Shown piece after piece: positions 2,318 through 41,098 of a DNA stretch of 64,000 bases. The stretch is from Bacteroidota bacterium (GTDB lineage Bacteria > Bacteroidota > Bacteroidia > JAKFFM01). The DNA is taken from contig JAKFFM010000014.1 of assembly GCA_036675075.1 (NCBI GenBank), positions 39,102 to 103,101 on the forward strand, in the 5' to 3' direction. Each line of letters starts with the position of its first letter. The first letter of the stretch is position 1. The translations under genes were made by a program, and so were the position numbers. Under the pieces are notes generated by a model. It was not told the origin of the DNA and did not search any database. It saw only the letters and a program-made list of their open reading frames with translations.

Positions 2318-4924
2318 TCAGAGGTTTTCCAACTGCTCTTTCAATGCCTTGATCTTCGCTTCAGCATCAGCCTGCTTCTTCTTTTCATTCTCAACAACCT
2401 CTGGCTTTGCATTCGAAACGAACTTTTCATTCGCAAGCTTTGATTGCACTGATTTCAGAAAGCCCATATTGTATTCGAGCTCTTTCTGGATCCGTTCTTT
2501 CTCTGCATCAGTATCAATGGATTCTCCATAAGGAATGAAAAATTCAGAAGTTCCAACCATGAAGGTGATCGCACCCTTCGGCTTTTCCTGCAAGGTACTT
2601 ATCATGGAAAGGTTTCCGAGTCGCCTGATGATCGGATCAAAAAGAATTCCACGGTCTGAAGAGATCGTCTGCAGCTCAATCTGATCACGCATAGGAATGT
2701 TCTTCTGCTTGCGGATGTTCCTGATCGATGTCACAATTTCTGAAGCCGTGGTGAATGCCTTATTGAGATCCGTTTTCACATCTCCTCCTTTGGGCCAGGA
2801 AGACACAATGATGTCATCCCCTTCTTTCCGCTCCCTGGATAAATGCCAGATCTCTTCAGAAATAAATGGCATGAAAGGATGCAGCACCTTCAACAGATTT
2901 TCAAAGAACCCAAGAGCCTGTTCGAGCGTCTTCTTATCAACCGGCTTTTGAAAATCAGGCTTGATCATTTCGAGATACCATGCACAGTAATCATCCCACA
3001 CAAGCTTGTATGTTGACATCAATGCATCCGACATCCTATACTTTGCATAATGGTCATCGATCTCCTTCAGTGATTCATTGAATCTTGAAGAAAACCATTC
3101 ACCCGCAATCTTATTTGTTTCCGGTTGAGCCTGGTCTGTTACTTCCCATCCTTTGATCAGACGGAATGCATTCCAGATCTTGTTTGCAAAGTTTCTTCCC
3201 TGCTCACAAAGACCTTCATCAAAAAGAAGATCGTTACCTGCAGGAGAGGATAACAGCATTCCTACTCTGACACCATCAGCACCGTACTGCGCAATAAGAT
3301 CAAGCGGATCAGGGGAATTACCAAGGGATTTAGACATCTTTCTTCCCTGCTTGTCTCTAACGATACCCGTGAGGTAAACATTGGAGAATGGCTTTTGTCC
3401 GCGATATTCATATCCTGCAATGATCATTCTTGCCACCCAGAAGAAAAGGATCTCGGGAGCTGTTATCAGGTCGTTTGTAGGATAATAGTAATTGATGTCT
3501 TTATTGTCTGGATCCTTGAATCCATCGAATACAGAGATCGGCCATAACCAGGAAGAGAACCATGTATCAAGCACATCATCATCCTGGCGAAGTGATGTGA
3601 ATTTTATTCCTTTTTCACGAAGCAGATTTTCAGCTTCATCCTGAGTTTTAGCGACAACATATTCGCCTTTCTCCGTGTACCAGGCAGGAATACGCTGTCC
3701 CCACCATAGCTGACGCGAAATGCACCAGTCGTGAACATTCTCCATCCAGTGCCTGTAAGTATTGATGAACTTTTCAGGGATAAAGCGGATGTTTCCATTG
3801 AGTACATTTTCAAGAGCTGGCTGGGAGACCTTGTCCATCTTCAGAAACCACTGCATCGATAGTCTTGGTTCAATGACAGCATCAGTACGTTCCGAGTAGC
3901 CGACTTTATTTTTGATGTCTTCTGCTTTAACCAGCTGACCCATGGCATCAAGATCTTTTGCGATCTGCTTTCTTACAACGAACCTGTCCTGGCCAACATA
4001 ATGTTCAGCCACAGGAGCAAGCTTACCTTCCGGTGTAAGCACATCGATCACCTCGAGGTTGTGCTTTATTGCCAGGTTATAATCGTTGATATCGTGGGCA
4101 GGTGTAACCTTCAAAGCACCTGTTCCGAACTCCATGGTGATGTATTCATCGAAAATGATCGGAACTGAACGGTTGATGATCGGGATGATGGCTCTTTTAC
4201 CTTTCAGATGGCGGTATCTTTCATCATCAGGGTGAACACAGACAGCAGTATCAGCAAGGATGGTTTCAGGCCTGGTTGTTGCAATAGTGATCCATTCGTC
4301 CTGGCTGTCCTCTATTTTATATTTTACATAATAAAGCTTTGAATTAACCTCTTTATGGATAACTTCTTCATCGCTGACAGCCGTAAGTCCCTGAGGATCC
4401 CAGTTGACCATACGAACACCACGGTAGATCTGGCCTTTTCTGAACAGGTCGATAAAAACATCGATCACTGCGTCGCTCAGGTCAGGGTCCATTGTGAAGC
4501 GGGTACGCTCCCAGTCGCATGAAGCCCCCAGCTTTTTAAGCTGTTCCAGGATGATACCGCCATATTTTTCCTTCCACTCCCAGGCATATTTGAGAAATTC
4601 TTCCCTTGTAAGCTGTTCCTTAGAAATACCTTTCTGCTTCAGCAAGGCAACCACTTTAGCTTCCGTTGCAATTGAAGCATGGTCTGTTCCAGGGACCCAG
4701 CAGGCGTTTTTGCCCATCATCCGAGCACGACGGATCAGCACATCCTGGATCGTGTTATTCAGCATATGGCCCATGTGAAGGACACCTGTGACATTCGGAG
4801 GAGGGATTACGATCGTATAAGGCTCACGTTCATCCGGTTCAGAATGAAAATAATTCTTTTCAAGCCAGAATGAATACCATTTATCTTCAACAGCAGCAGG
4901 GTCGTAAACCTTAGGAATTTCCAT
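2318..4924 (-). CDS. valS: Valine--tRNA ligase
   Basis: 868 aa. Class-I HIGH motif (PNVTGVLHMGHMLNNTIQD) and KMSKS motif (KMSKSLGN). C-terminal coiled-coil typical of ValRS. Confidence 0.97.
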   Translation of the reverse strand: MEIPKVYDPAAVEDKWYSFWLEKNYFHSEPDEREPYTIVIPPPNVTGVLHMGHMLNNTIQDVLIRRARMMGKNACWVPGTDHASIATEAKVVALLKQKGISKEQLTREEFLKYAWEWKEKYGGIILEQLKKLGASCDWERTRFTMDPDLSDAVIDVFIDLFRKGQIYRGVRMVNWDPQGLTAVSDEEVIHKEVNSKLYYVKYKIEDSQDEWITIATTRPETILADTAVCVHPDDERYRHLKGKRAIIPIINRSVPIIFDEYITMEFGTGALKVTPAHDINDYNLAIKHNLEVIDVLTPEGKLAPVAEHYVGQDRFVVRKQIAKDLDAMGQLVKAEDIKNKVGYSERTDAVIEPRLSMQWFLKMDKVSQPALENVLNGNIRFIPEKFINTYRHWMENVHDWCISRQLWWGQRIPAWYTEKGEYVVAKTQDEAENLLREKGIKFTSLRQDDDVLDTWFSSWLWPISVFDGFKDPDNKDINYYYPTNDLITAPEILFFWVARMIIAGYEYRGQKPFSNVYLTGIVRDKQGRKMSKSLGNSPDPLDLIAQYGADGVRVGMLLSSPAGNDLLFDEGLCEQGRNFANKIWNAFRLIKGWEVTDQAQPETNKIAGEWFSSRFNESLKEIDDHYAKYRMSDALMSTYKLVWDDYCAWYLEMIKPDFQKPVDKKTLEQALGFFENLLKVLHPFMPFISEEIWHLSRERKEGDDIIVSSWPKGGDVKTDLNKAFTTASEIVTSIRNIRKQKNIPMRDQIELQTISSDRGILFDPIIRRLGNLSMISTLQEKPKGAITFMVGTSEFFIPYGESIDTDAEKERIQKELEYNMGFLKSVQSKLANEKFVSNAKPEVVENEKKKQADAEAKIKALKEQLENL

Positions 4925-5078
4925 AAACTATGCGGTATTTAAAGGCGGCAAAGGTACTAAAACAATAATTTCGCAGAAACCCGTTTTACATGGAATTTAT
5001 GGCATGGTTTCTGTAATCGGCGCCTAAAAAATAAAACGCTAATATTTAATAACTTTGCACAGCTCAAACGTTAAAAAT

Positions 5079-5531
5079 ATGATGAGGACACTACTATTTT
5101 CTTTCTTGTTTTCAGTGATCGCATTTCCGGCATTCAGCCAGGATGGCAAGCCAGCAGCAACAGCACAGATCACCTTTGAAAAAATGATCCATGATTATGG
5201 AACCATCAGCCAGGGTGCAGATGGAAACGTTGAATTCACCTTTAAAAACACAGGAAAACAGCCATTGATCATCTCAAATGCGCGGGCATCCTGTGGGTGT
5301 ACAACTCCTATCTGGCCAAAGGAACCGATCAAGCCAGGAGCATCAGGAACCATTAAAGTTGGTTATGATACCAAGCGGGTTGGTGCATTTACAAAAACCA
5401 TTACGATCACAACCAACTCACAGACACCGGAAACCGTTCTAACCATCAAGGGCCTTGTTAATGCAGCACCTGTTGAAGAAACATTCCCTGGTAAGAAAGT
5501 TGAAGGAGCAGTACCACTGGAAAGACAATAA
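5079..5531 (+). CDS. DUF1573 domain lipoprotein/secreted protein (paralog 1)
   Basis: The ORF track begins at a TTG (5055). The ATG at 5079 gives a clean signal peptide, MMRTLLFSFLFSVIAFPAFSQ. Conserved core ...KNTGKQPLIISNARASCGCTTPIWPKEPIKPG... matches the DUF1573 pattern and the next gene. Confidence 0.75.
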   Translation: MMRTLLFSFLFSVIAFPAFSQDGKPAATAQITFEKMIHDYGTISQGADGNVEFTFKNTGKQPLIISNARASCGCTTPIWPKEPIKPGASGTIKVGYDTKRVGAFTKTITITTNSQTPETVLTIKGLVNAAPVEETFPGKKVEGAVPLERQ

Positions 5532-5577
5532 AATTTTAACATAACCGATAATTATTAATCAATAACACAATTACAAC

Positions 5578-6000
5578 ATGAAAAAGATCCTTGCATCACT
5601 AGGTTTATTTATGATGGTGGCAGTTGGAGCAAATGCTCAGGAAAAGCCTGCAAACCCGAACGCACCTGAAATGAAGTTTGACAAAGAAGTATTTGAGTTC
5701 GGAACGATCAAGCAAGGTGCTACCGTTGAGCATGAGTTCAAATTCAAGAATACTGGGAAAGAGCCGTTGATCATTACACAGGCACAGGGTTCATGTGGAT
5801 GTACTGTTCCTACATGGCCAAAAGAACCGATCAAGAAAGGTGAAACAGGAATTATCAAGATCGCATTTAACTCTGCTGGTAAAATGGGTGCACAGGATAA
5901 AACAGTGACCATCACTTCCAATGCAAAGAATAATCCGGTGGTTCTTCACATCAAAGGAACCATTGAAAAGCCAGCTGAAACAGCTGCTCCTGCCAAGTAA
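5578..6000 (+). CDS. DUF1573 domain secreted protein (paralog 2)
   Basis: Signal peptide. Core KNTGKEPLIITQAQGSCGCTVPTWPKEPIKKG is nearly identical to the upstream paralog. Followed by an intrinsic terminator. Confidence 0.75.
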   Translation: MKKILASLGLFMMVAVGANAQEKPANPNAPEMKFDKEVFEFGTIKQGATVEHEFKFKNTGKEPLIITQAQGSCGCTVPTWPKEPIKKGETGIIKIAFNSAGKMGAQDKTVTITSNAKNNPVVLHIKGTIEKPAETAAPAK

Positions 6001-6024
6001 GGCAAAGGAATAATTCTTAACTTT

Positions 6025-6056
6025 GTCCCGGTCTAAAAAAGGCCGGGACTTTTTAT
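6025..6056 (+). terminator. Rho-independent terminator after the DUF1573 pair
   Basis: GTCCCGG (6025-6031), loop, CCGGGAC (6043-6049), followed by TTTTTATTTT. Confidence 0.6.
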
Positions 6057-6065
6057 TTTATAACC

Positions 6066-7289
6066 ATGCCAGCAATCTCAGAAAAAGGACACAACATGCC
6101 GTCCTCACCGATCAGGAAACTAGTTCCATATGCGGAAAAAGCCAGGAGAGAAGGAAAGACGATCTATCACCTGAATATCGGGCAACCTGATATTGAAACT
6201 CCGGAAATTATGCTTGAAGCGATCCGGAACTTCAAACCACAAATTATAGAATACAGCCATAGTGCAGGAATGGAAAGCTACAGACGAAAGCTGACCACCT
6301 ACTATAAGAAATACAACATTGATCTTGACTTTAATGAGATCATGATCACAACAGGGGGATCAGAGGCAATCGAGATTGCGATCATGACCTGTCTAAACCC
6401 AGGTGACGAGATCATTGTTCCTGAGCCTTTCTATGCCAACTACAACGGTTTCTCAACACAGGCCGACGTTAAGATCAAACCAGTAAGATCACATATTGAA
6501 AATGGTTTCGCTTTACCTCCCATCTCTGAGTTTGAAAAGGTGATCACACCGAAAACCAAAGCGATCATGATCTGTAATCCGGGAAATCCAACAGGATACC
6601 TGTATTCAAAAGAAGAGCTGGAGGCATTAAAGGAGATCGTTCTGAAACATGACCTCTACCTTTTCTCAGATGAAGTTTACAGGGAATTCTGCTATGATGG
6701 AAAAAGCTACGTTTCTGTAATGCATCTGAAAGGGATCGAAAACAATGTGGTCATGCTTGATTCAATCTCCAAGCGTTACAGCGCATGTGGAGCACGAATC
6801 GGTGCCCTTATTTCAAAAAACAAGGAAGTGATGGCAGCTGCGCTTAAGTTCGCTCAGGCACGATTAAGTCCGCCTACCTTCGGACAGGTGGCCGCTGAAG
6901 CAGCACTCGACACACCAGATTCATATTTCACTTCAGTGATCACTGAATATACAAGACGCCGCGATTACCTTATTGAAGCGTTGAATAAAATTGAAGGAGT
7001 GTTCTGTCCAAAACCGAGCGGCGCATTTTATTGCATTGCACGACTACCGATCGACAATGCCGATAAATTCTGTCAGTGGCTTCTTGAAGATTTCAGCTAT
7101 GAAAACAAAACGCTGATGCTCGCACCGGCTACCGGCTTCTATTCTGATCCATCAATCGGAGTTGATGAAGTGCGTCTTGCTTATGTTCTCAACCTTGAAT
7201 CATTGAAAAACGCAATGATATGCCTTGAGAAAGCGCTTGAAGTGTATCCTGGAAGAAAGGTCATAAAAAAAGCAGAAGCAGCACTCTGA
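6066..7289 (+). CDS. Pyridoxal-phosphate-dependent aminotransferase, class I/II (aspartate/alanine aminotransferase-like)
   Basis: 407 aa. PLP-lysine motif SISKRYSACGARIGAL. Typical fold-type I length and layout. Confidence 0.85.
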   Translation: MPAISEKGHNMPSSPIRKLVPYAEKARREGKTIYHLNIGQPDIETPEIMLEAIRNFKPQIIEYSHSAGMESYRRKLTTYYKKYNIDLDFNEIMITTGGSEAIEIAIMTCLNPGDEIIVPEPFYANYNGFSTQADVKIKPVRSHIENGFALPPISEFEKVITPKTKAIMICNPGNPTGYLYSKEELEALKEIVLKHDLYLFSDEVYREFCYDGKSYVSVMHLKGIENNVVMLDSISKRYSACGARIGALISKNKEVMAAALKFAQARLSPPTFGQVAAEAALDTPDSYFTSVITEYTRRRDYLIEALNKIEGVFCPKPSGAFYCIARLPIDNADKFCQWLLEDFSYENKTLMLAPATGFYSDPSIGVDEVRLAYVLNLESLKNAMICLEKALEVYPGRKVIKKAEAAL

Positions 7290-7291
7290 TC

Positions 7292-8467
7292 CTATTCCGC
7301 GTAAAGCAGGTATTTCTTACGCTTTTCTTTAAACTCTGACAGAGCAGGCTCCCATGATAGTCTGATCTCAGCTTCAGACTGGCCTTCCCTGATCTGTTTT
7401 TCAAGTTGATCAGTACCCGCAAGGTTTTTAAAGTAGGAGTTAAAGAATGTTTCTTTCTTCTCGCTCTCTTTGTACATTCTGATCACCCATGAAAGATCAA
7501 GCTTCTTTTCTTTCAGAATGTGTTCAGACAGATAAGTAAGGTCATAGCCATTACATAACTGTCCTTCATAAGGCGGTGTTTTTGAAGCTCCTTTAATGCT
7601 TCGGGGCGTAAATTCATAATCACCAACTTTATGTCCGGGATACCCAATGACTGTAAAGGGTTCATCAGTACCTCTACCCACGCTTACAATCGTTCCTTCG
7701 AAAAAGCACACAGAAGGATAGAGATAGATCGATCGCATGGTTGGAAGATTTGGAGAAGGCTTCACTGGCAGATCATATGTTGAACTGTGCGAGTAATTTT
7801 TACAAAGCACATAGCTGAGATTGCATTTTAAACCACCTTTCAGCCATCCCTGATCATTAGCCATGAGCGCATATTCTGCGATCGTGAGTCCATAAACAAC
7901 AGGCACAGGATCAAGGCCAACAAACGATTTGCAGTTATCATCACGCATAGGACCATCTACATAAAACCCATTTGGATTTGGACGATCCAGGATCAGGTAT
8001 GGCTTTTTAAGTTCAGCGCATGCTTCCATTACAAGCCGCATAGTGCTCACATAAGTATAGAATCTGACACCAACATCCTGCATGTCATACACCACGATAT
8101 CCACATCAGCAAGATCTGCTGGTTTGGGCTTTTGATGAGCGCCGTATAGCGAAATGATAGGAATGCCTGTCTTTTTATCTTTTCCGCTTTTAATTTTTGC
8201 ACCGGCATCTTCTGTACCTCTGAAACCATGTTCAGGGCTCATGATCTTTTTAATATTCACCTTAAGGCTCAGCAATGTATCCAGGAGGTGCGTATTGTTG
8301 ATCCTTGAAGTATGATTGGCAACAAGGGCGACACGCTTCCCCTGAAGCAATGGTAAATATTGATCAAGCTGGTATACTCCAGGCAGGATCTCCTGTGCAC
8401 GAAGAACAGAAACTGAAAAAATCAGAGCAACACAAACAAGTAAAAACCTACGAAAGCGAAATGGCAT
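7292..8467 (-). CDS. DUF1343 family protein (NamZ-like exo-beta-N-acetylmuramidase family)
   Basis: Signal peptide. N-terminal KRVALVANHTSR motif and overall length fit the DUF1343/YzbB family. Confidence 0.65.
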   Translation of the reverse strand: MPFRFRRFLLVCVALIFSVSVLRAQEILPGVYQLDQYLPLLQGKRVALVANHTSRINNTHLLDTLLSLKVNIKKIMSPEHGFRGTEDAGAKIKSGKDKKTGIPIISLYGAHQKPKPADLADVDIVVYDMQDVGVRFYTYVSTMRLVMEACAELKKPYLILDRPNPNGFYVDGPMRDDNCKSFVGLDPVPVVYGLTIAEYALMANDQGWLKGGLKCNLSYVLCKNYSHSSTYDLPVKPSPNLPTMRSIYLYPSVCFFEGTIVSVGRGTDEPFTVIGYPGHKVGDYEFTPRSIKGASKTPPYEGQLCNGYDLTYLSEHILKEKKLDLSWVIRMYKESEKKETFFNSYFKNLAGTDQLEKQIREGQSEAEIRLSWEPALSEFKEKRKKYLLYAE

Positions 8468-9781: not shown

Positions 9782-11137
9782 ATGTATTACAAAAACATTC
9801 TTGAAACGATTGGTAACACGCCTCTTGTTAAGCTTAACAAGGTTACCAAAGATGTAAAAGGCCTCGTACTGGCTAAAGTGGAAACTTTCAATCCGGGAAA
9901 CTCGATCAAAGACCGTATGGCTCTGAAGATGATCGAGGATGCAGAAAAATCCGGAAAGCTAAAGCCGGGCGGAACCATCATAGAAGGGACATCAGGAAAC
10001 ACCGGGATGGGCCTTGCCATCGCAGCCATTATCAAAGGCTATAAGTGCATCTTCACGACTACAGATAAGCAGTCAAAAGAAAAAGTCGATGCACTGAGAG
10101 CATTCGGAGCAGAAGTAATTGTATGCCCGACCAACGTTGATCCAGAAGATCCACGTTCATATTATTCAGTATCCTCAAGGCTTGAAAAAGAAACACCCAA
10201 TGCCTTCAAGCCAAATCAATACGACAATCCAAGCAACTCGCTGGCGCATTATGAGCAGACGGGGCCGGAGATCTGGGAACAGACTGAAGGCAAGATCACT
10301 CATCTTGTTGTTGGTGTAGGAACAGGCGGTACAATCTGCGGTACAGGAAAGTATCTGAAAGAGAAAAATCCAAACATCAAAATATTGGGTATCGATACCT
10401 ACGGATCTGTATTCAAGAAGTACAAGGAAACCGGCATCTTTGATAAAAGTGAGATCTATCCTTACATCACTGAAGGGATCGGAGAAGACTTTTTACCTGA
10501 GAATGTTGATTTCAGTGTCATCGATCATTTTGAAAAAGTGACCGATAAAGATGCTGCGATCATGACAAGAGAGATCGTAAAGAAAGAAGGCATCTTTGTG
10601 GGTAACTCAGCAGGAGCAGCCATAGCAGGACTTCTTCAGATGAAAGACCAGTTTAAAGAAGATGATGTGATCGTTGTGATCTTTCACGATCATGGTACAC
10701 GTTACCTTGGAAAGATGTTCAATGATGACTGGATGAGAGATCGCGGTTTCCTTGAAAAGCCAAAGCAGACAGCAAGAACGATCATTGAATCAAGAAAAGA
10801 TTTTTCGCTGACATCCGTCGATGCAAACCAGACAGTAGAAGAAGCATTGATGAAGATCACCCGTTCAGATATATCACAACTACCTGTGCTTAAGAATGGT
10901 GAAATGGTCGGATCTTTAAGTGAAAGTTCACTGTTCTCCAAGATCGTAGAAAATCCTTCGGTGAAAACAGCCACTGTGGAAACCATCATGGACAAGCCTT
11001 TCCCATATGTAAATGAAGACACTTCAGTAGAAGAGATCTCCGGAAAGTTTACAAAAGAGATGGGTGCTGTGGCGATCAAAAACAACGGACAGCTCGAGAT
11101 CATCACCAAACATGATATTATAAAAGCGATCATCTGA
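9782..11137 (+). CDS. Cystathionine beta-synthase (PLP-dependent CysK-like domain with a C-terminal CBS pair)
   Basis: PLP-lysine motif GNSIKDRMA, glycine loop GTSGNTG, and two CBS domains at the C-terminus. Confidence 0.85.
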   Translation: MYYKNILETIGNTPLVKLNKVTKDVKGLVLAKVETFNPGNSIKDRMALKMIEDAEKSGKLKPGGTIIEGTSGNTGMGLAIAAIIKGYKCIFTTTDKQSKEKVDALRAFGAEVIVCPTNVDPEDPRSYYSVSSRLEKETPNAFKPNQYDNPSNSLAHYEQTGPEIWEQTEGKITHLVVGVGTGGTICGTGKYLKEKNPNIKILGIDTYGSVFKKYKETGIFDKSEIYPYITEGIGEDFLPENVDFSVIDHFEKVTDKDAAIMTREIVKKEGIFVGNSAGAAIAGLLQMKDQFKEDDVIVVIFHDHGTRYLGKMFNDDWMRDRGFLEKPKQTARTIIESRKDFSLTSVDANQTVEEALMKITRSDISQLPVLKNGEMVGSLSESSLFSKIVENPSVKTATVETIMDKPFPYVNEDTSVEEISGKFTKEMGAVAIKNNGQLEIITKHDIIKAII

Positions 11138-14887: not shown

Positions 14888-14918
14888 TTGACATTCCTGA
14901 TCTGGTGATTTAAATTTG
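14888..14918 (+). promoter_or_regulatory. Putative Bacteroidota sigma-A promoter (TTG, 20 nt spacer, TAAATTTG) for the small ORF at 14962
   Basis: TTG at 14888-14890. TAAATTTG at 14911-14918 matches the TAnnTTTG -7 consensus with appropriate spacing. Confidence 0.4.
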
Positions 14919-14961: not shown

Positions 14962-15156
14962 ATGAAAACAACTGAAAAAAGACAGGGAAGTTCAATGAAA
15001 AGTTTCGACTACTATGATTCAGAATTGAGAGTAAGAAAAGGAGTTAAAGAAAAACGAAAAGACAAGACACTCAGTAATATAAAGTCCTTCTTTCATGGAA
15101 GCAACCTTCAGGAAAGCCTTAAAATGGTTGAAGATATTGACACATTTGAAGATTAA
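14962..15156 (+). CDS. Small hypothetical protein (64 aa, highly charged)
   Basis: ATG-initiated ORF flanked by a consensus-like promoter and a strong terminator. No recognisable domain. Confidence 0.3.
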   Translation: MKTTEKRQGSSMKSFDYYDSELRVRKGVKEKRKDKTLSNIKSFFHGSNLQESLKMVEDIDTFED

Positions 15157-15172
15157 GCTTCATCCTTAAAAA

Positions 15173-15212
15173 GAAAGCCCCTTCTGACGTACAGAAGGGG
15201 CTTTCTTATTTT
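15173..15212. terminator. Bidirectional intrinsic terminator between convergent genes
   Basis: Perfect 14-bp stem GAAAGCCCCTTCTG (15173-15186) / CAGAAGGGGCTTTC (15192-15205), 5-nt loop, flanked by an A-run upstream and TTATTTT downstream. Confidence 0.8.
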
Positions 15213-15223
15213 AGTAGTTCAAG

Positions 15224-15910
15224 TCAGACATCGATCAGATAATCCTCAATAAATTCACGTACACAACCATCGCCGCCTTTACGGTCAAGTATCACATCCG
15301 CGATCGCTTTCACCTTCGCTACAGCATCCGAAGGGCATGCAGTAAAACCGCATTTCTTCATCACTTCAAGGTCATTCACATCGTCGCCGATATACGCAAC
15401 CTCTTCCCAGCCAAGAGACATCCTTTTGAGCCATGAATCAAGAATACCCAGCTTTGGATCAAGTCCGACATACGTATTTTGAACTCCCAGAAGCTTTGCT
15501 CTCGAGTTAACCAGCATGTCGTTGATCCCTGAACTTAAAAAAGCAACCTGGAATCCGGATTTCGTAAGCTTTTTAAGCGCCATACCATCGCGTGTATGAA
15601 AACGCTTGAACTCATCACCAGACTGCGTGTAGAACATACCACCTTCAGTAAGCACACCATCAACATCCAGAACCAGCAAGCGAACCTCTGGCTTCTTCAC
15701 TGCAATATCTTTTGACGTAAGACGATCAAGTGAGATACCGAAATAAGCAGCAGCAGCACGGGCGAAACTTAACGATGGTTCACGTTTTCCGGTAAGCACA
15801 TCATTGATCTCTGTCTGAGTAATAACCTGGGATGAATGAAAGTCCTTTCCTGCATCGCCTTTCAGCAACGCATCAACATTTTTCAGAAATATGCTGTGAT
15901 CAGATGACAT
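15224..15910 (-). CDS. kdsC: HAD-IIIA KdsC-family phosphatase (3-deoxy-D-manno-octulosonate-8-phosphate phosphatase-like) with an unusual ~75-aa N-terminal extension
   Basis: Core LLVLDVDGVLTEGGMFY...DG.ALKKL...AFLSS...EVAYIGDDVNDLEVM...CPSDA. Confidence 0.7.
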   Translation of the reverse strand: MSSDHSIFLKNVDALLKGDAGKDFHSSQVITQTEINDVLTGKREPSLSFARAAAAYFGISLDRLTSKDIAVKKPEVRLLVLDVDGVLTEGGMFYTQSGDEFKRFHTRDGMALKKLTKSGFQVAFLSSGINDMLVNSRAKLLGVQNTYVGLDPKLGILDSWLKRMSLGWEEVAYIGDDVNDLEVMKKCGFTACPSDAVAKVKAIADVILDRKGGDGCVREFIEDYLIDV

Positions 15911-16898
15911 TACGTCCTATGGCTTTACCAATTGGCTGAAGTGTGTTATACAGTGTGGTGAACTGGTCGAAGTCAAGCTGCTGTGAAGCATCAGATTTTG
16001 CCACCTTTGGGTTCGGATGGGTTTCGATCAACAGACCATCGACCCCCATAGCCATGGAAGCCCGGGCAAGATCAGCAACACCGTATGCATAGCCAATGGC
16101 GTGACTTGGATCGACAATGATTGGAAGATTGGTATGTTCTTTCAGGTAGGCAACACCGCAAAGATCAAGGGTGAAACGAGTCTTTGTTTCAAACGTACGG
16201 ATACCTCTTTCACAAAGCATCACATTTGGATTTCCGCCTGAAAGTACAAACTCCGCAGCCTGAACGAATTCCTGCAGGGTTGATCCGAATCCACGCTTAA
16301 GCAGCACGGGCTTACCAGACCTTGCACATCCTTTCAGAATTCCATGATCGTACATTGCTTTTGCGCCGATCTGAAGAATATCAGCATATTCGATCACTTC
16401 GTTCACATGCGTACTGTCGCGGATCTCCGTGATGATCTTTAAATCATACTTAGACCGCATTTTATCAAGCAGCTTTAATCCTTCAAGACCGAGTCCCTGG
16501 AACGTGTATGGTGATGTACGAGGCTTGAAAGCACCGGCACGCAGGATCTTTACACCAAGCTTTACACAAAGCTGAGCAGCCTGTTCGATCTGCTCTTCCG
16601 ATTCAACAGAACATGGTCCGGTAATCACTACCGTGTTGTTAGTTCCACCACCAATAGTCGCGGCCCCTATAGTAACTTTTCTTACCTCCTGCTTATACTT
16701 TCGGTTGGCAAGCTGCATATCATTATCGAATACCCAGCTGTTTTCCGCAAGCTCTTTATACTTTTCCGGTATCTCGCGCAAAGCGGATGGAGTGATCAAT
16801 ACCAGTGAATTATCCTCTTCGATCACAAAAGCCTGCAGGTCTTTAGCGAGCTCCTCTGCCCTGTTTTTATCTATTCCTGCTTTTAGCCTGATTATCAT
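15900..16898 (-). CDS. 3-deoxy-7-phosphoheptulonate (DAHP) synthase, type Ibeta with N-terminal regulatory domain
   Basis: GPCSVESEEQ and RAGAFKPRTSPYTFQGLG are the DAHPS-Ibeta signature, as opposed to the KDO8PS FDKANRSS signature. Also LLKRG, ERGIRTFE, DPSH. The ~75-aa N-terminal extension is as in Thermotoga-type AroG. Confidence 0.8.
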   Translation of the reverse strand: MIIRLKAGIDKNRAEELAKDLQAFVIEEDNSLVLITPSALREIPEKYKELAENSWVFDNDMQLANRKYKQEVRKVTIGAATIGGGTNNTVVITGPCSVESEEQIEQAAQLCVKLGVKILRAGAFKPRTSPYTFQGLGLEGLKLLDKMRSKYDLKIITEIRDSTHVNEVIEYADILQIGAKAMYDHGILKGCARSGKPVLLKRGFGSTLQEFVQAAEFVLSGGNPNVMLCERGIRTFETKTRFTLDLCGVAYLKEHTNLPIIVDPSHAIGYAYGVADLARASMAMGVDGLLIETHPNPKVAKSDASQQLDFDQFTTLYNTLQPIGKAIGRNVI

Positions 16899-17896
16899 GC
16901 TTCTCCTTTGATTAGATTATTAAATGAAAGCGCCCCTTTGAGCTTGCCTGCATCATTGATCACAGGCACGAACATCACGGGAAACTTTTTCTGTTTTATT
17001 TCTTTCAGCATCTCTGCTATGGTACAATTTTCATTGAGACAAAAAGGCTGTGGATTTAAAAGATCAGAAACCTCAAGAGTTTCAAGAGATTCAATCTTTT
17101 TAATCATTCCTCTTCTTAAATCTGCATTGCTGATCAATCCTTCAAGCTTATCATCTTCATTCACCATCAGCGTAAAGCCAAGTCTGAATTTTTCGATGGA
17201 TTCCAGCACTTCTTTTAATGGTGATTTCTTTGATATCATTGGTAATTCATCCGGGTGCAGCATGAATTCACTGATCTTTATTTCTGAATGAACAGAATCA
17301 TTGCGAAGGCGATGCAATGCGGATCCGATGAAATCTGCGTTGACAAGGAACGAACCTGAAACAACGAGGTTGATTCCCATATTTCTTAGCACGAATGAAA
17401 GCTCATCATTTATTCCACCGTCAACATGAAATGATTTTCCAGGAAACCGGTTTCTGAATGAACGGATATTCTTGTAATTCGCACTTTTAAAGCCATCACC
17501 TGTCCGGCCTGGTGTTTCCGAAGTGAATAAAAGGAAATCAAAATCACCTTTCTCTTCCAACATCTGAATGCTGGTTGTTGGCTTTATCGCGAAACCTGTT
17601 TTTGTGGCTTTCAAAGAAGGCCATCTGAATCCCTGCGGGAGTTCTTCCAATTGAAAAGCAACCATTTCAGTCGCGTCTTCCTCAATCAGGGGGATGTACT
17701 TTTCAGGTGATTGTGTGATGATATGAAGATCAATCGGCGTCTTGCAGATTGCACGTATCCTGGATATATCGGAAAATACAGCCGGATCATCATTGCAGTC
17801 GATGTGAATATAATCGACATGAAGGCTGTCAAGTTCTTTTACAAGGTCTTCGAGTTTTTTAGTCTTGTTCGAATAAACCGAAGCAGAGATTTTCAT
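16895..17896 (-). CDS. Ribulose-phosphate 3-epimerase-like (Rpe fold) domain fused to a C-terminal CBS-domain pair
   Basis: Rpe metal-binding and barrel motifs are recognisable (HIDCNDD, DLHIITQSPEKYI, TPGRTGDGF, FHVDGGIN). About 110 C-terminal residues form a CBS pair. Confidence 0.6.
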   Translation of the reverse strand: MKISASVYSNKTKKLEDLVKELDSLHVDYIHIDCNDDPAVFSDISRIRAICKTPIDLHIITQSPEKYIPLIEEDATEMVAFQLEELPQGFRWPSLKATKTGFAIKPTTSIQMLEEKGDFDFLLFTSETPGRTGDGFKSANYKNIRSFRNRFPGKSFHVDGGINDELSFVLRNMGINLVVSGSFLVNADFIGSALHRLRNDSVHSEIKISEFMLHPDELPMISKKSPLKEVLESIEKFRLGFTLMVNEDDKLEGLISNADLRRGMIKKIESLETLEVSDLLNPQPFCLNENCTIAEMLKEIKQKKFPVMFVPVINDAGKLKGALSFNNLIKGEA

Positions 17897-19362
17897 TACC
17901 TGCTATAGTTAGGAGCTTCCCTTGTGATCTGAACATCGTGCGGATGGCTTTCTCTGACACCTGCCGGAGTGACTCTGATGAATTTCGCTTTCTGAAGAGC
18001 TTTCACATCCTTTGCACCCACGTATCCCATACCTGCACGAAGCCCGCCGATCATCTGGTACATCACTTCAGACAGTGTTCCTTTGTATGGTACACGGCCT
18101 GAGATACCTTCAGGGACAAGCTTTTTGATATCATCTTCAACATCCTGGAAATAACGATCCTTTGATCCATGCTGCATCGCCTCGATCGAACCCATTCCAC
18201 GATATGATTTGAATTTTCTTCCTTCAAAGATGATTGTTTCACCCGGAGATTCTTCAACACCAGCGAACAGTGATCCCGCCATGATCGTTCCAGCACCAGC
18301 TGCAAGAGCCTTTACGATATCACCTGTGAAACGGATCCCGCCATCAGCGATGATCGGCACACCAGTTCCTTTAAGGCCCTGCGCTACATTCAGCACGGCA
18401 AACAGCTGAGGCACACCAACACCTGCGATCACACGCGTGGTGCAGATAGATCCTGGCCCAATACCTACTTTCACCGCATCAGCACCCGCTTCAACAAGCG
18501 CTTTACCAGCTTCTGCAGTCGCGATGTTACCGACAATGACCTGAAGGTCTTTGTACTTTTTCTTTACTGCTTTGAGCGTGCTGATCACACCCTTTGAATG
18601 ACCATGGGCAGTATCAATGGTGATTGCGTCTACGCTGGCATTGAAAAGAGCTTCCACGCGGTCCATCACATCAGCGGTAACACCCACAGCAGCTGCCACT
18701 CTAAGGCGGCCAAGGTGATCCTTGCAAGCATTCGGGCGAACTTTAATCTTTATGATATCCTTGTAAGTGATCAGACCTACCAGCTTATTGTTTTTCCCCA
18801 CAACAGGAAGCTTTTCGATCTTGTATTCCTGGAGTATTTCCTCGGCTTTCTTAAGATCAGTGCCTTGTTTTGTTGTGATGATATTTTCTTTTGTCATGAC
18901 TTCCCACACAGGTCTGCCATGGTTTTTTTCAAAACGCAGATCGCGGTTTGTTACAATCCCGACAAGCTCATGTTTCGCGTTGATCACAGGGATTCCACCG
19001 ATCTTGAATTCTTTCATCAGGGCCAGTGCATCGAACACAGAAGCATTTTCAAGAAGAGTGACAGGATCCATGATCATTCCACTCTCAGATCGCTTCACTT
19101 TTCGAACGTGGTCGGCCTGAGCCTGTATGCTCATGTTCTTATGAAGAACACCGATACCACCCTCCTGCGCGATCGCGATAGCAAGTTGATATTCAGTTAC
19201 AGTGTCCATTGCGGCAGACACGATAGGTGCTTTGATACGAATCTCTCTTGTGAAATTGCTTGAAATATCCACATCGCGTGGAAGAACTTCAGAGTAAGCC
19301 GGTACGAGGAGAACATCGTCGTAGGTGAGCCCTTCACCTACAAATTTGGTGGAATTTAACAT
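17896..19362 (-). CDS. guaB: IMP dehydrogenase
   Basis: 488 aa. Catalytic Cys loop [14 protein letters not shown] subdomain insertion. C-terminal flap. Confidence 0.97.
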
Positions 19363-19391
19363 AGTATTCCTTCCTTACGAAATTCATGCAA

Positions 19392-19433
19392 AGGTACGAT
19401 TTAAATACCTTACGGCAAAACTGTAATCGTACC
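19392..19433. repeat. Perfect 10-bp inverted repeat (AGGTACGATT / AATCGTACCT, 22-nt loop) spanning the stop codon of the upstream T9SS gene, 30 nt upstream of guaB
   Basis: Seen directly in the sequence. The minus-strand transcript would form a stem-loop here. No strong U-tract follows. Confidence 0.5.
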
Positions 19434-33839: not shown

Positions 33840-34909
33840 CTCTTGCCTCTTTTTAGTTTAAGAACAATAAAAAACAGTACCAATAAAGTGATGCAGGCAA
33901 TTCCAAATCCGAACCAGAAATAGTTGTGCGTGATCATCAATAACGTCAGGTATGGAAGTAACCTGAAGTTAAATTCTGGCTCTTCATGTATCGTGCTTTT
34001 CCAGAAGTTTATATCATAAGATTCTAGTGACTTTAAATCCTGGCCAGTAAGGGAAATGCACTCAAATGAAATGCGGTCATTCTTCATATTCACCTTAAGT
34101 ACAGCATCACGAGGCAGCTCCCGGATAGCAGTCTGGATATGTACGATCCCTGTACCTGGATCTTTGTCATAAAAGAATGAAACAGGAGCAGATGACATTG
34201 AACCTGACATCCAGTAAACTTCCGCCAGTTTAGAAACTTCTTTAAGTAATGGTAGAACAACACGTTCATAATTGTTGTTTCCAACCATTGTACGCGTGTT
34301 ACCAGCAAAGAGTCCATCATAGCGCTTATTCTGTTCTGCCCAGACAGGACGATGAGAAAAGACAAAAACATGTTTAACTCCGGATGTACTCACTTGCTCC
34401 AGGGCTTCACGCAGCATCCCAAGCTGCTCATCTTCGATGCTGCCATCATCAGATTCTGTATCAAGAAAAACAAAGAGAGAATTTTTAAAGATGAAGTGGC
34501 TGTATGTCTTTCCATACCATTTCACATACGCCCCTCTTCCCAGGTCATGATTTCCAACAACATTAAAGAGAGGAAAGCTGATCTTTTCAAAAAAGCTTTT
34601 GTCATAATTCTCTTTCACCTGCGGATTCAGCTCAGGAAACAGATCACCGAGGGAAACCATAAAAGATGGTTTAAAAGAATTCAGCGAGTCAATATTGCCC
34701 AGGATCGTTGAGGCCGGAAAACCGGATACGTTCGAAGATGCGCCATGGATATGTCCGGTCACTAAAAAAGTAAATCCGGCAGAATCGTATTCATTGACCG
34801 CTTTACCATTAAAGGGAGAAACCTGCGTATAGCCTGTCAGTGTAAACAGGACAAAATACATGCTGATCAATATGAACTGAAGCTTTACTCCTGCCTTACC
34901 TGACATCAA
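33836..34909 (-). CDS. Calcineurin-like metallophosphoesterase, exported (signal peptide) with a C-terminal TM anchor
   Basis: MPE motifs TGHIHG, SLGDLF and VVGNHD. C-terminal hydrophobic helix followed by KLKRGKR. Confidence 0.7.
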   Translation of the reverse strand: MMSGKAGVKLQFILISMYFVLFTLTGYTQVSPFNGKAVNEYDSAGFTFLVTGHIHGASSNVSGFPASTILGNIDSLNSFKPSFMVSLGDLFPELNPQVKENYDKSFFEKISFPLFNVVGNHDLGRGAYVKWYGKTYSHFIFKNSLFVFLDTESDDGSIEDEQLGMLREALEQVSTSGVKHVFVFSHRPVWAEQNKRYDGLFAGNTRTMVGNNNYERVVLPLLKEVSKLAEVYWMSGSMSSAPVSFFYDKDPGTGIVHIQTAIRELPRDAVLKVNMKNDRISFECISLTGQDLKSLESYDINFWKSTIHEEPEFNFRLLPYLTLLMITHNYFWFGFGIACITLLVLFFIVLKLKRGKR

Positions 34910-37436: not shown

Positions 37437-38741
37437 TTACCGGGCGACTTGCACTGCTTCCTGGTCTTTGTGAAACTCAGGGTTTGTGATAACAGTTAAG
37501 ATAATAAGAAAGATGATTGTAAGCGGGTTCAATGACCCTACCATCCATGATTCAAAAAAAGCACTGAAGGTCACAGCAAACATAATTGGAAACGACAACG
37601 GTGTCAGTTTAGCTGCCCTTATAAATGTCAGGAGATAAGACCTCATAAAGATGATCAGTCCAATCAGTCCTGTATCCATCCAGAATGTAAGGAATGAATT
37701 ATGCACTCCGCCCTGATGTCCCAGCTTTGTAAGGAGCATATAATGTTTCCTCATGTAATATTCATTATAACCAAAGCCTCTTCCTACAAAAAAGTTTGTC
37801 TGGATATGATCCCATGCAAATTTCCAGGCGACAATCCTTCCGCTTCCTTCAGATAAAGTTTCAAGTCTGAAGAACTTCTGGAGTCCCAAAGCAATGATGA
37901 TCACCTCGAAATTCTCACCCACCAACTCCGTGATGATGACAATCACGAAAAAGATGAGGAATCCCAACATCGGCGACATGAAATAAAATCTCTTTAACAA
38001 CAGGAACAAAAGAACTGCAATCATTGAGTTACGGGAGCCACAAAGAATCAGGGAGGCAATAAGGACGATATTAAAAAGCTGCCATGCCCGCTTGGAGAAG
38101 ATCGCTCCTCTCAGATGCGCAAGTGTGTGGGCAAGCGTAAATATCAAAAAGGTAAACAGTCCCAATCCGTTCGGGTTACCTAAAGGACCATTGTATCTTC
38201 CCTTTACATAAACCATTTCACGATCGACAAACATCAATACAAATCCAACGCAGAGGAATGTGAAAACAAGCATGAGAAAATCCACAAGGAACCTGTCTTT
38301 TTCCTCCCTGTAAACCCGCTGAATGTAGTTGGGGACTGATATGAACAGGAGTATGTATGATAATGTTTTCTGAATGCTTATCGGCAAGGTCACAGAAAAT
38401 GAAAGACAAAAAACCGCGAACAAAAAGAACGGCAGGAATGTTTTAAAGATCGTATTATAAGGAACGAACTTCTTACTGTCTAAAAAGAAGAACAGCGAGA
38501 ACATGACGATGTACATGTTCTTGAGAGACTTAGCAAAGAGCAGCTCAGGATCCAGCCTGTCGGAAAGGATCAGAATAAACAGGAATCCAAAGAGGATCTC
38601 CTTGTTGTACTCTTTCCTTTTTAGAAGCAGAAGGCTTGCACCGACAACAACAAATGCCAGAACATTCGAGATAATCCCGGCCAGAAGCCAGACGATCAGC
38701 ATAAAATAAAACTGCATGTTTCTTTTATAGTGATCTTTCAT
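37437..38741 (-). CDS. O-antigen ligase/polymerase family (Wzy_C) integral membrane protein
   Basis: ~11 TMs with a large periplasmic loop near the C-terminal third (…NSFLTFWMDTGLIGL…), typical of WaaL/Wzy_C proteins. Confidence 0.65.
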   Translation of the reverse strand: MKDHYKRNMQFYFMLIVWLLAGIISNVLAFVVVGASLLLLKRKEYNKEILFGFLFILILSDRLDPELLFAKSLKNMYIVMFSLFFFLDSKKFVPYNTIFKTFLPFFLFAVFCLSFSVTLPISIQKTLSYILLFISVPNYIQRVYREEKDRFLVDFLMLVFTFLCVGFVLMFVDREMVYVKGRYNGPLGNPNGLGLFTFLIFTLAHTLAHLRGAIFSKRAWQLFNIVLIASLILCGSRNSMIAVLLFLLLKRFYFMSPMLGFLIFFVIVIITELVGENFEVIIIALGLQKFFRLETLSEGSGRIVAWKFAWDHIQTNFFVGRGFGYNEYYMRKHYMLLTKLGHQGGVHNSFLTFWMDTGLIGLIIFMRSYLLTFIRAAKLTPLSFPIMFAVTFSAFFESWMVGSLNPLTIIFLIILTVITNPEFHKDQEAVQVAR

Positions 38742-38743
38742 AT

Positions 38744-41094: not shown

Positions 41095-41098
41095 ATGA

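Follow-up and report, generated by a model that had tools for sequence, protein, structure and literature searches.

Three overlapping genes in a Bacteroidota genome most likely direct the synthesis of a 3-deoxy sugar acid that resembles Kdo and is destined for glycans of the cell surface. They lie in a window of 64,000 nucleotides, the whole stretch of DNA that was analyzed, and code for a fusion of an Rpe-like barrel with a CBS pair, a DAHPS-Iβ-like synthase, and a KdsC/YrbI phosphatase. Judged from sequence comparisons, the genes probably constitute a self-contained operon that is an analog of the Kdo pathway and produces a 3-deoxy-ulosonic acid, presumably with seven carbons, rather than an entry to the shikimate pathway. 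The three genes are a widely conserved unit with which nothing else is co-conserved. No published description of this cassette was found in the literature.

Organization of the gene string

The ORF list of the window contains three consecutive, overlapping ORFs on the minus strand, exactly where an earlier sequence-only reading had placed them. Gene 1 (16895-17896, 333 residues) encodes the Rpe-like barrel and a C-terminal CBS pair, as defined by the ORF, profile matches, and an AlphaFold model. Gene 2 (15900-16898, 332 residues) encodes a predicted 3-deoxy-ulosonate-phosphate synthase, assigned as a Lys-variant, DAHPS-Iβ-like protein by profiles, a clade signature, monophyly, and a structure model. 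Gene 3 (15224-15910, 228 residues) encodes, according to profiles, a HAD-IIIA phosphatase of the KdsC/YrbI family with an N-terminal HTH-like extension. The junction between genes 1 and 2 is ATGA, and genes 2 and 3 overlap by 11 nt. The motifs previously quoted are all present: HIDCNDD (residues 31-37), TPGRTGDGF (128-136), and HVDGGIN (157-163) in gene 1, and KPRTSPYTFQG (125-135) in gene 2.

A bidirectional intrinsic terminator (15171-15207) closes both the string and a convergent small ORF. Its perfect 16-bp stem and 5-nt loop are flanked by an A-run on one side and a T-run on the other, so the strong terminator described earlier is real. At the opposite end lies guaB, encoding IMP dehydrogenase (17896-19362, minus strand; ORF and profile matches). 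The guaB stop codon overlaps the start codon of gene 1 (TAATG), and guaB is therefore probably co-transcribed with the string in this genome. No IMPDH gene is located upstream of the module at any other locus, where the sole IMPDH matches are CBS cross-matches inside the fusion gene. guaB does not belong to the conserved module. The sequence TACCTTTG, 27 nt upstream of guaB (19389-19396, minus strand), is a putative -7 promoter motif of the Bacteroidota type, identified by a regular-expression match only; the same expression has no match within the 350 nt that precede gene 1.

An Rpe-like barrel fused to a KdsD-type CBS pair

The Rpe-like (β/α)8 domain comprises residues 1-200 (17297-17896, minus strand), as assigned by alignment (A1), phmmer comparison with Rpe structures, and Foldseek. 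The CBS pair comprises residues 205-333 (16898-17284, minus strand). Gene 1 matches Pfam Ribul_P_3_epim with 73 bits, as well as CBS, and its AlphaFold model (pLDDT 86) displays an Rpe fold and an API-type CBS pair. The barrel aligns with Rpe structures in Foldseek with TM scores of 0.70-0.78 and 18-25% identity. The protein remains below the Rpe cut-offs, with 66.6 versus 212.6 bits for TIGR01163 and 76.6 versus 165 bits for NF004076.

The His/Asp/His/Asp metal and acid-base residues of Rpe are kept as H31, D33, H58, and D159, which are invariant in alignment A1. Three active-site methionines cushion the enediolate in Rpe structures. The first two of these positions are Asn35 and Ile60 across the family, and at the third position the window has Thr and most relatives have Met. 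In addition, Cys34 is invariant across the Bacteroidota/Campylobacter group.

The CBS pair is closest to those of KpsF/KdsD arabinose-5-phosphate isomerases. Its best NCBIfam match is TIGR00393 kpsF (49 bits), followed by KdsD and GutQ, and its best solved matches, 3fna, 4o9k, and 3k2v, are all API CBS pairs. A SIS catalytic domain has no match in gene 1; the kpsF match is confined to CBS residues 207-323 and reaches 49 bits versus a cut-off of 203.7. The sequence-only reading, which had proposed an Rpe fold with a metal site joined to a KdsD-like CBS pair, is correct on both points. Hundreds of full-length homologs of ~334 residues carry the two domains together, which rules out the fusion as a sequencing artifact.

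A DAHPS-like synthase with an altered PEP site

The structure model of the synthase (pLDDT 90) superimposes over its full length on Thermotoga maritima DAHPS (1rzm), with a TM score of 0.86 over 343 columns. The N-terminal domain (residues 1-65; 16704-16898, minus strand) is modeled with a β-α-β-β-α-β order of secondary structure, like ferredoxin or ACT domains. In T. maritima DAHPS, the N-terminal domain is a Tyr-binding regulator. At the sequence level, the corresponding domain of the synthase matched no solved domain.

The synthase exceeds the DAHPS cut-offs (366.7 versus 335 bits for NF006421 and 322.9 versus 267.75 for TIGR01361), scores 231 bits with Pfam DAHP_synth_1, and lies far below the KDO8PS cut-offs (128.9 versus 314 for TIGR01362 and 131.9 versus 242 for NF003543). 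Its barrel shares 47-53% identity with DAHPS and 26-31% with KDO8PS; identity to canonical DAHPS representatives is ~50% on average and 56% at maximum. The synthase has the metal ligands C96, H266, E292, and D303 and the K125-P-R-T-S motif, all of which the clade conserves, with KPRTS in place of the KANRS motif of KDO8PS. The region following DPSH is as long as in solved DAHPS structures and does not contain the extended β7-α7 loop of KDO8PS. Relative to solved DAHPS, the barrel has no indels except two residues near its N-terminal edge. The DAHPS-Iβ signature and the extra N-terminal domain noted earlier are thus borne out by the motif and by the modeled fold.

A distinctive signature, QIGAKAMYDHGIL (16335-16373, minus strand), replaces the canonical QIGARNxQN[FY] and is conserved in 51 module synthases and in all 120 of 120 further relatives. 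Each of the five reference structures of DAHPS uses the Arg of the G-A/S-R motif for PEP binding (PMC6362186). This position is Lys in 15 of 15 clade members, Lys180 in the window (codon 16359-16361), and in the 120 further relatives, versus Arg in 136 of 136 canonical representatives. The clade is monophyletic and separate (bootstrap 167/200).

Public databases annotate the module synthases as DAHP synthase, even as 'bifunctional DAHPS/chorismate mutase'. If the synthase has the role proposed below, many Bacteroidota MAG reconstructions may, through such pipeline names, wrongly credit shikimate entry.

A KdsC/YrbI phosphatase with a helix-turn-helix-like extension

The phosphatase core, delineated by motif and profile matches, comprises residues 76-228 (15227-15685, minus strand) and includes the HAD motifs LDVDGVLT and GDDVNDL. 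It scores above the YrbI subfamily cut-off (TIGR01670, 138.4 versus 106.95 bits) and below both equivalog cut-offs, those of KdsC (NF007019, 130 versus 208) and KDN9P phosphatase (NF058599, 137.2 versus 180).

The N-terminal extension, residues 1-75 (15686-15910, minus strand), resembles a degenerate XRE/Cro-type helix-turn-helix. It matches Pfam HTH_3 with 22.0 bits in the window, against a cut-off of 23, and HTH_3 is above the Pfam threshold, at 24-40 bits, in the phosphatase extensions of four of six other lineages. An in-frame extension of 67-79 residues is found in about two-thirds of loci. The KdsC-family HAD phosphatase with a ~75-residue extension was correctly recognized at the outset, and the extension can now be described as a degenerate HTH. 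An HTH-KdsC fusion is an unusual enzyme-regulator architecture that is worth testing.

Conservation and genomic context

The synthase gene directly follows the fusion gene in 68 of 68 related loci, mostly with a spacing of -1 to +6 nt, and the phosphatase gene comes next in 55 of 57. Any other neighbor occurs in no more than 9 of 57 loci. A natural synthase-KdsC fusion exists (P0131), and Marinoscillum has a synthase and a phosphatase without an adjacent Rpe-CBS gene. Firm grouping with bona fide AroG and scattered neighbors, the outcome that the sequence-only reading had set against its own proposal, is not what was found: the synthase belongs to a separate Lys clade with conserved synteny.

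No aro genes are linked to the module in the ~100 loci examined. In the window and in ~60 Bacteroidota loci, the module has no linked gene for a cytidylyltransferase, a glycosyltransferase, or an RraA-like protein. A homology search of limited sensitivity traced no ortholog of the Campylobacter cytidylyltransferase to module-bearing Bacteroidota genomes. CMP activation in Bacteroidota is unsupported, because no cytidylyltransferase match was tied to such genomes. Polysaccharide clusters lie within 4-8 kb of the module in the window and in Paracrocinitomix mangrovi.

The cassettes of C. coli, C. lari, and C. jejuni are composed of Rpe-CBS, synthase, a cytidylyltransferase-phosphatase fusion, and an RraA-like gene, and adjoin Capsule_synth (KpsC/KpsS-family) genes. 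Their products share 64% (synthase), 39% (Rpe-CBS), and 53-54% (phosphatase core, compared with the HAD half of the fusion) identity with those of the window. CTP_transf_3-KdsC-like fusions are found in relatives' cassettes, and the loci L092, L093, and L097 are glycan clusters with PseF/KdsB-like cytidylyltransferases. The cytidylyltransferase of the Campylobacter cassette represents a small separate family, closest to PseF and not to KdsB. An RraA-like gene accompanies non-Bacteroidota cassettes. The Campylobacter cassette is located within the serotype-variable part of the capsule locus, and poly-Kdo serves as the anchor of the capsule. In the collection, just 1-4 Campylobacter contigs carry cassette genes, which makes the cassette accessory in this genus. 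The housekeeping DAHPS of C. jejuni is encoded by a gene of its own, Cj0716.

Proposed pathway and alternatives

With the gene anatomy, clade signature, co-conservation, fusions, and glycan-locus location directly observed, we infer the catalytic steps, substrates, product, regulation, and downstream fate in Bacteroidota as follows. The Rpe-like/CBS enzyme would prepare a sugar phosphate, most plausibly by α-proton epimerization at the intact His/Asp/His/Asp metal site. The Lys-variant synthase would condense it with PEP to a 3-deoxy-2-ulosonate phosphate, and the KdsC-family phosphatase would remove the phosphate to give the free sugar acid. The retained KPRT motif and the lack of loop-length changes in the barrel that distinguish KDO8PS from DAHPS point to a tetrose 4-phosphate as the most likely aldose and a 7-carbon 3-deoxy-heptulosonic acid (DAH or an epimer) as the product. 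The acid would serve as a CMP-activated building block of surface polysaccharide, because capsule or glycan loci of other phyla combine these enzymes with a cytidylyltransferase. The KdsD-type CBS pair and, in most Bacteroidota, the phosphatase-fused HTH probably confer feedback and transcriptional control. Co-conservation, the synthase-KdsC fusion, and the cytidylyltransferase-joined capsule cassettes lend support to the KDO-like pathway of KdsD-KdsA-KdsC logic that had been one of two initial proposals.

Several observations count against this pathway. The synthase passes the NCBIfam DAHPS cut-offs and has a T. maritima-like N-terminal domain, Bacteroidota loci are devoid of a cytidylyltransferase, and Marinoscillum lacks an adjacent Rpe-CBS gene. 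A ketose-phosphate epimerase upstream of an aldose-using synthase makes sense only with a changed substrate. One such substrate, tentative and rather unlikely, is erythrose 4-phosphate. E4P equals Ru5P minus the C1 hydroxymethyl group, so that Rpe chemistry on it would yield D-threose-4-P. The Rpe-like domain would then be an erythrose-4-phosphate 2-epimerase, and the synthase would combine D-threose-4-P with PEP to form 3-deoxy-D-lyxo-heptulosonate 7-phosphate, a 7-carbon 'nor-Kdo'.

The same genes could instead be a non-orthologous route to Kdo itself, replacing or supplementing KdsD/KdsA/KdsC. The Rpe-like/CBS protein would supply arabinose-5-phosphate, by Ru5P isomerization or ribose-5-P 2-epimerization, for a KDO8P synthase of DAHPS ancestry and a genuine KDO8P phosphatase. 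The mirrored gene order, the KdsD/KpsF-like CBS pair, and a phosphatase whose scores on KdsC models come close to its best on any model are consistent with this route, as is the position of the Campylobacter cassette beside Capsule_synth genes in a locus for a poly-Kdo-anchored capsule. KpsC and KpsS are Kdo transferases, and Pyrococcus DAHPS accepts A5P. However, the KDO8PS scores, the KPRTS motif, the absent β7-α7 loop, and the lower barrel identity to KDO8PS all argue against it. Moreover, Campylobacter already has canonical Kdo genes, its cassette is in the serotype-variable part of the locus, and the cassette cytidylyltransferase is PseF-like rather than KdsB-like. A Kdo route is improbable on this balance. 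Regulated shikimate entry, the other initial proposal, is no more credible and is disfavored. It would make the synthase a working DAHP synthase with N-terminal feedback, the Rpe-like/CBS protein a tuner of pentose-phosphate/E4P supply, and the KdsC-like protein an LPS phosphatase that shares the operon. The DAHPS HMM scores, intact metal ligands and KPRT, T. maritima architecture, and public annotation agree with it, but aro genes are absent from all of the ~100 loci and the PEP-binding Arg is replaced clade-wide. The tightly coupled phosphatase, fused to the synthase in P0131, would hydrolyze DAHP, and orthologs of 64% identity reside in Campylobacter capsule loci with a cytidylyltransferase, Cj0716 being the DAHPS with the housekeeping role.

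In Bacteroidota, the free sugar acid might also be an end product or signal, such as an osmolyte, chelator precursor, or regulatory metabolite, with the HTH-phosphatase as a one-component regulator. The module stands alone in ~60 loci, the search detected no orthologous cytidylyltransferase, and about two-thirds of loci have an HTH on the phosphatase instead of the cytidylyltransferase domain. Yet that search has limited sensitivity, the orthologs in other groups clearly serve CMP-activated glycan synthesis, and polysaccharide clusters are near the module in the window and P. mangrovi; a role outside glycans is very unlikely.

If the favored pathway, a Kdo analog for surface glycans, is true, the DAHPS/KDO8PS superfamily gains a third functional clade, recognizable by the Lys replacing the PEP-binding Arg. 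An Rpe-type-based ulosonic-acid pathway would give bacterial glycobiology a new monosaccharide, among others in capsules of certain C. jejuni, C. coli, and C. lari types. In these species, capsule sugars determine serotype and serve as vaccine targets. If 'nor-Kdo' is the product, dephosphorylation and CMP activation would turn it into a bacterial surface sugar that has so far gone unrecognized, occurring in some capsules of Campylobacter and in many Bacteroidota from the environment. The pathway would also represent the kind of route that has been lacking for Dha-like heptulosaric acids; the biosynthesis of these acids and their activated form were stated to be unknown (PMC3355719). The proposal is directly testable in a cultured host with a complete genome, P. 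mangrovi (CP091819.1), and in Campylobacter strains.

Comparison with known systems

A PEP-dependent synthase coupled to a phosphatase, as in ulosonate pathways, is found genomically in the 55 of 57 loci and in the P0131 fusion. A CMP-sugar synthetase in a glycan locus is seen in Campylobacter, L092, L093, and L097, and not in the window or other Bacteroidota loci. The cassette shares with Kdo biosynthesis (KdsD/KpsF-KdsA-KdsC-KdsB/KpsU) its four-step logic, with CMP activation in relatives and, in the window, also the gene order. The CBS pair is KdsD-type, and the synthase belongs to the same DAHPS-Iβ/KDO8PS superfamily. However, the first enzyme has an Rpe barrel in place of the SIS domain, the synthase groups with DAHPS by its KPRT motif, its loop lengths, and its low scores on KDO8PS models (129-132 bits, with cut-offs of 242-314), and the phosphatase does not reach the cut-off of the KdsC equivalog. 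Relatives have a cytidylyltransferase from a small family of its own, and non-Bacteroidota cassettes add the RraA-like gene.

KDN and sialic-acid pathways likewise employ a YrbI-family phosphatase on a PEP-derived ulosonate phosphate, for example the B. thetaiotaomicron KDN-9-P phosphatase (3e81), and CMP-sialate synthetases with a C-terminal KdsC-like domain (3ewi) resemble the CTP_transf_3-KdsC-like fusion of Campylobacter. Their synthases, however, are of the NeuB family and act on substrates derived from hexoses; the cassette synthase is DAHPS-like, and the cassette phosphatase is below the KDN-9-P model cut-off (137 versus 180).

Gene 1 has the fold of Rpe and AlsE, their His-x-Asp...His...Asp-Gly-Gly metal/acid-base constellation, and their phosphate-binding glycine loops. 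It differs from them in its low Rpe score, the Met to Asn and Ile replacements, the fused CBS pair, and the constant partnership with a Lys-variant synthase. Its β2-α2 loop is also ~6 residues shorter than that of Rpe in the alignment. The synthase resembles T. maritima AroG (1rzm; NF006421) in its modeled two-domain architecture and retains the Cys/His/Glu/Asp ligands, KPRTSPY.FQG, Lys201, and Arg231 of type Iβ DAHPS. Where these enzymes have the PEP-binding Arg and, following it, a conserved Asn, its clade has Lys and Asp (K-A/S-M-Y/F-D). The clade is linked not to aro genes but to Rpe-CBS and usually a KdsC-like phosphatase, and it is found in capsule loci.

Organization of the gene string

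Four minus-strand ORFs with overlapping ends run in the order guaB, encoding IMPDH (17896–19362), the Rpe-like/CBS fusion gene (gene 1, 16895–17896), the DAHPS-like synthase gene (gene 2, 15900–16898), and the KdsC-like phosphatase gene (gene 3, 15224–15910). The junctions consist of TAATG between guaB and gene 1, ATGA between gene 1 and the synthase gene, and an 11-nt overlap between the synthase and phosphatase genes. The string ends at a hairpin terminator (15171–15207) with a perfect 16-bp stem, an A-run, and a T-run, which serves the convergent side as well. The sequence-only reading had described three overlapping minus-strand genes, a set of protein motifs, and a bidirectional terminator, all of which were found. 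Only one Bacteroidota-type −7 motif, TACCTTTG, was found; it is a candidate promoter and is situated 27 nt upstream of guaB. Given the overlapping ends and the position of this motif, the module is probably co-transcribed with guaB in this genome.

The actual convergent neighbor of the module is a 64-aa lysine-rich ORF (14962–15156, plus strand), located between an FAA-hydrolase gene and the shared hairpin. It matches no family and is preceded by a sigma-70-like promoter match (14888–14916). A cystathionine-beta-synthase-like protein of 451 aa, composed of PALP and a CBS pair, is encoded at 9782–11137 (plus strand). Together with guaB and gene 1, it is one of three CBS-pair proteins within 10 kb.

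Conservation of the trio

Beyond the window, 99 further loci were collected, and linkage was counted in Bacteroidota-type loci. The synthase gene is immediately downstream of the fusion gene in all 68 loci with room for it, usually at a spacing of −1 to +6 nt, and a KdsC-like core comes next in 55 of 57 loci. The synteny of the trio is thus conserved. In all-against-all clustering of 810 neighboring ORFs, every other gene was present in at most 9 of the 57 loci, and the exceptional loci L047, L089, L065, and L033, when inspected, offered no alternative partner. In Marinoscillum, the synthase and phosphatase occur without an adjacent Rpe-CBS gene.

Two candidate partners were rejected. No IMPDH gene lies upstream of the module at any other locus, where IMPDH matches are solely CBS cross-matches within the fusion gene. 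The glycan cluster at 26–64 kb is not co-conserved. No cytidylyltransferase, kds, or aro genes are present within the window.

The synthase defines a separate clade

Gene 2 scores above the DAHPS-Ibeta model cut-offs (366.7 versus 335 and 322.9 versus 267.75 bits) and under those of KDO8PS models (about 130 bits versus 242–314). Across 51 module synthases, the sequence QIGAK-A/S-M-Y-D-H-G-I-L occupies the site where solved DAHPS have QIGAR-N-x-Q-N-F/Y, placing a lysine (Lys180 in the window) at the position of an arginine. Each of the five reference DAHPS structures, of types Ialpha, Ibeta, and II, has this arginine as a PEP-binding residue, and it has been called completely conserved (PMC6362186). 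When 1.84 billion representatives were searched exhaustively, the lysine form occurred only in the group with the highest scores, and all canonical representatives carried arginine. With a divergent clade member as query, all 120 retrieved proteins contained K-[AST]-M-[YF]-D and KPRT. In a neighbor-joining tree of 151 barrels, the Lys-variant group forms a single clade with a bootstrap of 167/200, and the discriminating positions are Lys (15/15) versus Arg (136/136) and Asp (93%) versus Asn (96%). The sequence-only reading had weighed DAHPS-Ibeta against KDO8PS for this enzyme. The tree places it apart from canonical DAHPS, and it fails the KDO8PS models. DPSH-x-x-G-R-R was dropped as a second diagnostic motif because it varies among canonical DAHPS.

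The Lys-variant clade retains the four metal ligands, KPRT, Lys201, and Arg231, and its barrel aligns with solved DAHPS without insertions or deletions, except for two residues close to the N-terminal edge. The AlphaFold model of the synthase (pLDDT 90) superimposes over its full length on T. maritima DAHPS with a TM score of 0.86, including the N-terminal beta-alpha-beta-beta-alpha-beta domain. The model fits KDO8PS structures less well, at 26–31% identity. A sequence-profile search of the N-terminal domain against solved regulatory domains returned spurious coiled-coil matches only; its predicted tie to them is structural only.

P0141 (339 aa) is a degenerate Lys-variant member, possibly a pseudoenzyme: the metal-binding Cys is missing (GPGVIDS), KRRT stands in place of KPRT, and DPGH in place of DPSH. 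P0132 (423 aa) and P0137 (465 aa) are canonical DAHPS with a partial tandem barrel duplication and two GARNMQNF motifs; the duplication is either genuine or arose in assembly. The Lys-variant protein P0287 (332 aa) is labeled by NCBI as a bifunctional 3-deoxy-7-phosphoheptulonate synthase/chorismate mutase and contains no chorismate mutase domain. This label exemplifies the misannotation of the clade, which is at present annotated as DAHP synthase.

The Rpe-like/CBS protein and the phosphatase

The gene 1 product contains Pfam Ribul_P_3_epim (73 bits) and CBS domains, and falls far under the Rpe equivalog model (66.6 bits, cut-off 212.6). The best profile matches of its CBS pair are KpsF/KdsD/GutQ. 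For all three module proteins, the profile picture agrees with searches against solved structures. The fusion is genuine rather than a product of sequencing error, because both domains occur together in hundreds of homologs of ~334 aa. Among 16 diverse members, H31, D33, H58, and D159 are invariant and align to the metal and acid-base residues of Rpe. Cys34 is also invariant, and two of the Rpe methionine positions are occupied by Asn35 and Ile60. More distant partners of Lys-variant synthases, at loci L093 and L097, retain H-x-D, H, and D-G-G, but not the Cys and Asn. The gene 1 model (pLDDT 86) matches Rpe barrels at TM 0.70–0.78 and 18–25% identity, and its CBS pair is nearest to those of arabinose-5-phosphate isomerases (4o9k, 3k2v, and 3fna). 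A structure search with this model found no solved protein combining an Rpe barrel and a CBS pair.

The gene 3 product passes the YrbI subfamily model (138 versus 107 bits) and is below both the KdsC and KDN-9-P phosphatase equivalog models. The spacing ahead of the KdsC core is bimodal, at about 20–95 nt or about 210–280 nt. The long form encodes a 67–79-aa extension in frame with the core, which matches Pfam HTH_3 above threshold (24–40 bits) in four of six lineages. The window's extension is a degenerate copy (22.0 bits versus a threshold of 23). The bimodal spacing and HTH_3 scores indicate that most Bacteroidota versions are HTH-KdsC fusions, the others being plain KdsC-like proteins of ~160 aa. 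In Bacteroidota, the HTH stands where a cytidylyltransferase domain is found on the phosphatase elsewhere.

Glycan loci and the cytidylyltransferase

Outside Bacteroidota, cytidylyltransferase genes accompany the module in several loci. Locus L092 has the order Rpe-CBS, synthase, and PseF/KdsB-like cytidylyltransferase. L093 has, in this order, cytidylyltransferase, RraA-like, Rpe-CBS, and synthase genes, surrounded by UDP-glucose dehydrogenase and methyl-, acetyl-, and sulfotransferase genes. In L097, Rpe-CBS and synthase genes are followed by a cytidylyltransferase-KdsC-like gene, which is truncated, and an RraA-like gene, all within a glycosyltransferase cluster. In P0131 (521 aa), the synthase and KdsC are themselves fused. 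Two genes downstream of P0131, in a high-GC organism, L090 encodes a phosphonoacetaldehyde hydrolase (PhnX, 343 bits; 2885–3715).

In Campylobacter coli, C. lari, and C. jejuni, a cassette of Rpe-CBS, synthase, CTP_transf_3-HAD fusion, and RraA-like genes adjoins Capsule_synth genes. The latter have the sizes of KpsC (675 aa) and KpsS (392–394 aa) in C. coli and C. lari; one, of 394 aa, was called in C. jejuni. Identity to the window proteins is 64% for the synthase, 39% for Rpe-CBS, and 53–54% for the phosphatase core, with the same signatures. The C. jejuni DAHPS, Cj0716, is separate from the cassette. Cassette proteins were found on only 1–4 Campylobacter contigs in the collection searched, so the cassette is accessory. 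Capsule-specific genes of C. jejuni lie between kpsC and kpsF, and a poly-Kdo linker carries the capsule (PMC10919079); the text of that paper contains no match to "heptulos", "DAHP", or "ribulose".

The Campylobacter capsule loci hold further genes. In L100 (C. jejuni GCA_053314255.1), a second cassette (3223–7811) diverges from the Rpe-CBS cassette and comprises CTP_transf_3 (252 aa), HMGL-like (522 aa), HAD, class II aldolase, and methyltransferase genes. It may represent another CMP-activated acid pathway within the same capsule locus. L095 (768–5997 and 13265–16522) and L096 (7265–11798) carry genes for DUF8374 proteins, an AMP-binding enzyme paired with a small protein of 79 aa, a cytochrome P450, and a phosphopantetheinyl transferase (ACPS), as well as a Glyphos_transf gene. 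This content suggests that the capsule is acylated or resembles teichoic acid.

In Bacteroidota loci, the module has no linked gene for a cytidylyltransferase, an RraA-like protein, or a glycosyltransferase. A search with the Campylobacter cytidylyltransferase domain retrieved 106 proteins, a small family. By contig-length matching, none of them was traced to a module-bearing Bacteroidota genome, so that no unlinked ortholog was found; the only match was P0462/P0383, on one 1.39-Mb contig.

Glycan genes are present in the window, where about 38 kb (26110–63958) of near-continuous minus-strand glycan-assembly genes include many GT1/GT2/GT4/GT11, three Acyl_transf_3, asparagine synthase, DegT aminotransferase, pyruvyl transferase, polysaccharide deacetylase, and Wzt_C. 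Within this region, 34896–41809 (minus strand) encodes two CotH-kinase-like proteins of 846 and 559 aa, one of which has a beta-helix, together with a Wzy-like polymerase and proteins with VTC and DUF4956 domains, an unusual combination for a polysaccharide locus. In Paracrocinitomix mangrovi (L098), Wzz/Poly_export/GT4/AsnB genes lie about 4 kb from the module.

The probable pathway served by the module

The context outside Bacteroidota decides what kind of pathway the module serves. The sequence-only reading offered a KDO-like pathway built from DAHPS-type parts or, alternatively, a regulated entry into the shikimate pathway. The phosphatase is obligatorily coupled to the synthase and sometimes fused to it, the same phosphatase is fused to a cytidylyltransferase elsewhere, and the module resides in capsule and glycan loci. 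These features count against shikimate entry, which is unlikely. A Kdo/NulO-type ulosonic-acid pathway is the best explanation of the comparative genomics, which favors the first of the two proposals.

For this ulosonic-acid pathway, the fact that KPRT and the DAHPS loop lengths are kept favors a tetrose-phosphate substrate, and hence a 7-carbon product, over Kdo. The Rpe-like domain might epimerize E4P at C2 to D-threose-4-P, yielding 3-deoxy-D-lyxo-heptulosonate with Kdo-like stereochemistry. The step is chemically natural because E4P equals Ru5P minus C1, but we regard this particular route as rather improbable. For Dha, a related plant and algal sugar, the biosynthetic route has been stated to be unknown (PMC3355719). 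P. mangrovi (CP091819.1) and the Campylobacter strains provide cultured hosts for testing. No paper describing the cassette turned up in the full-text literature searched. Compared with known systems, the cassette is a variant of a known pathway type, with a newly delimited enzyme clade.
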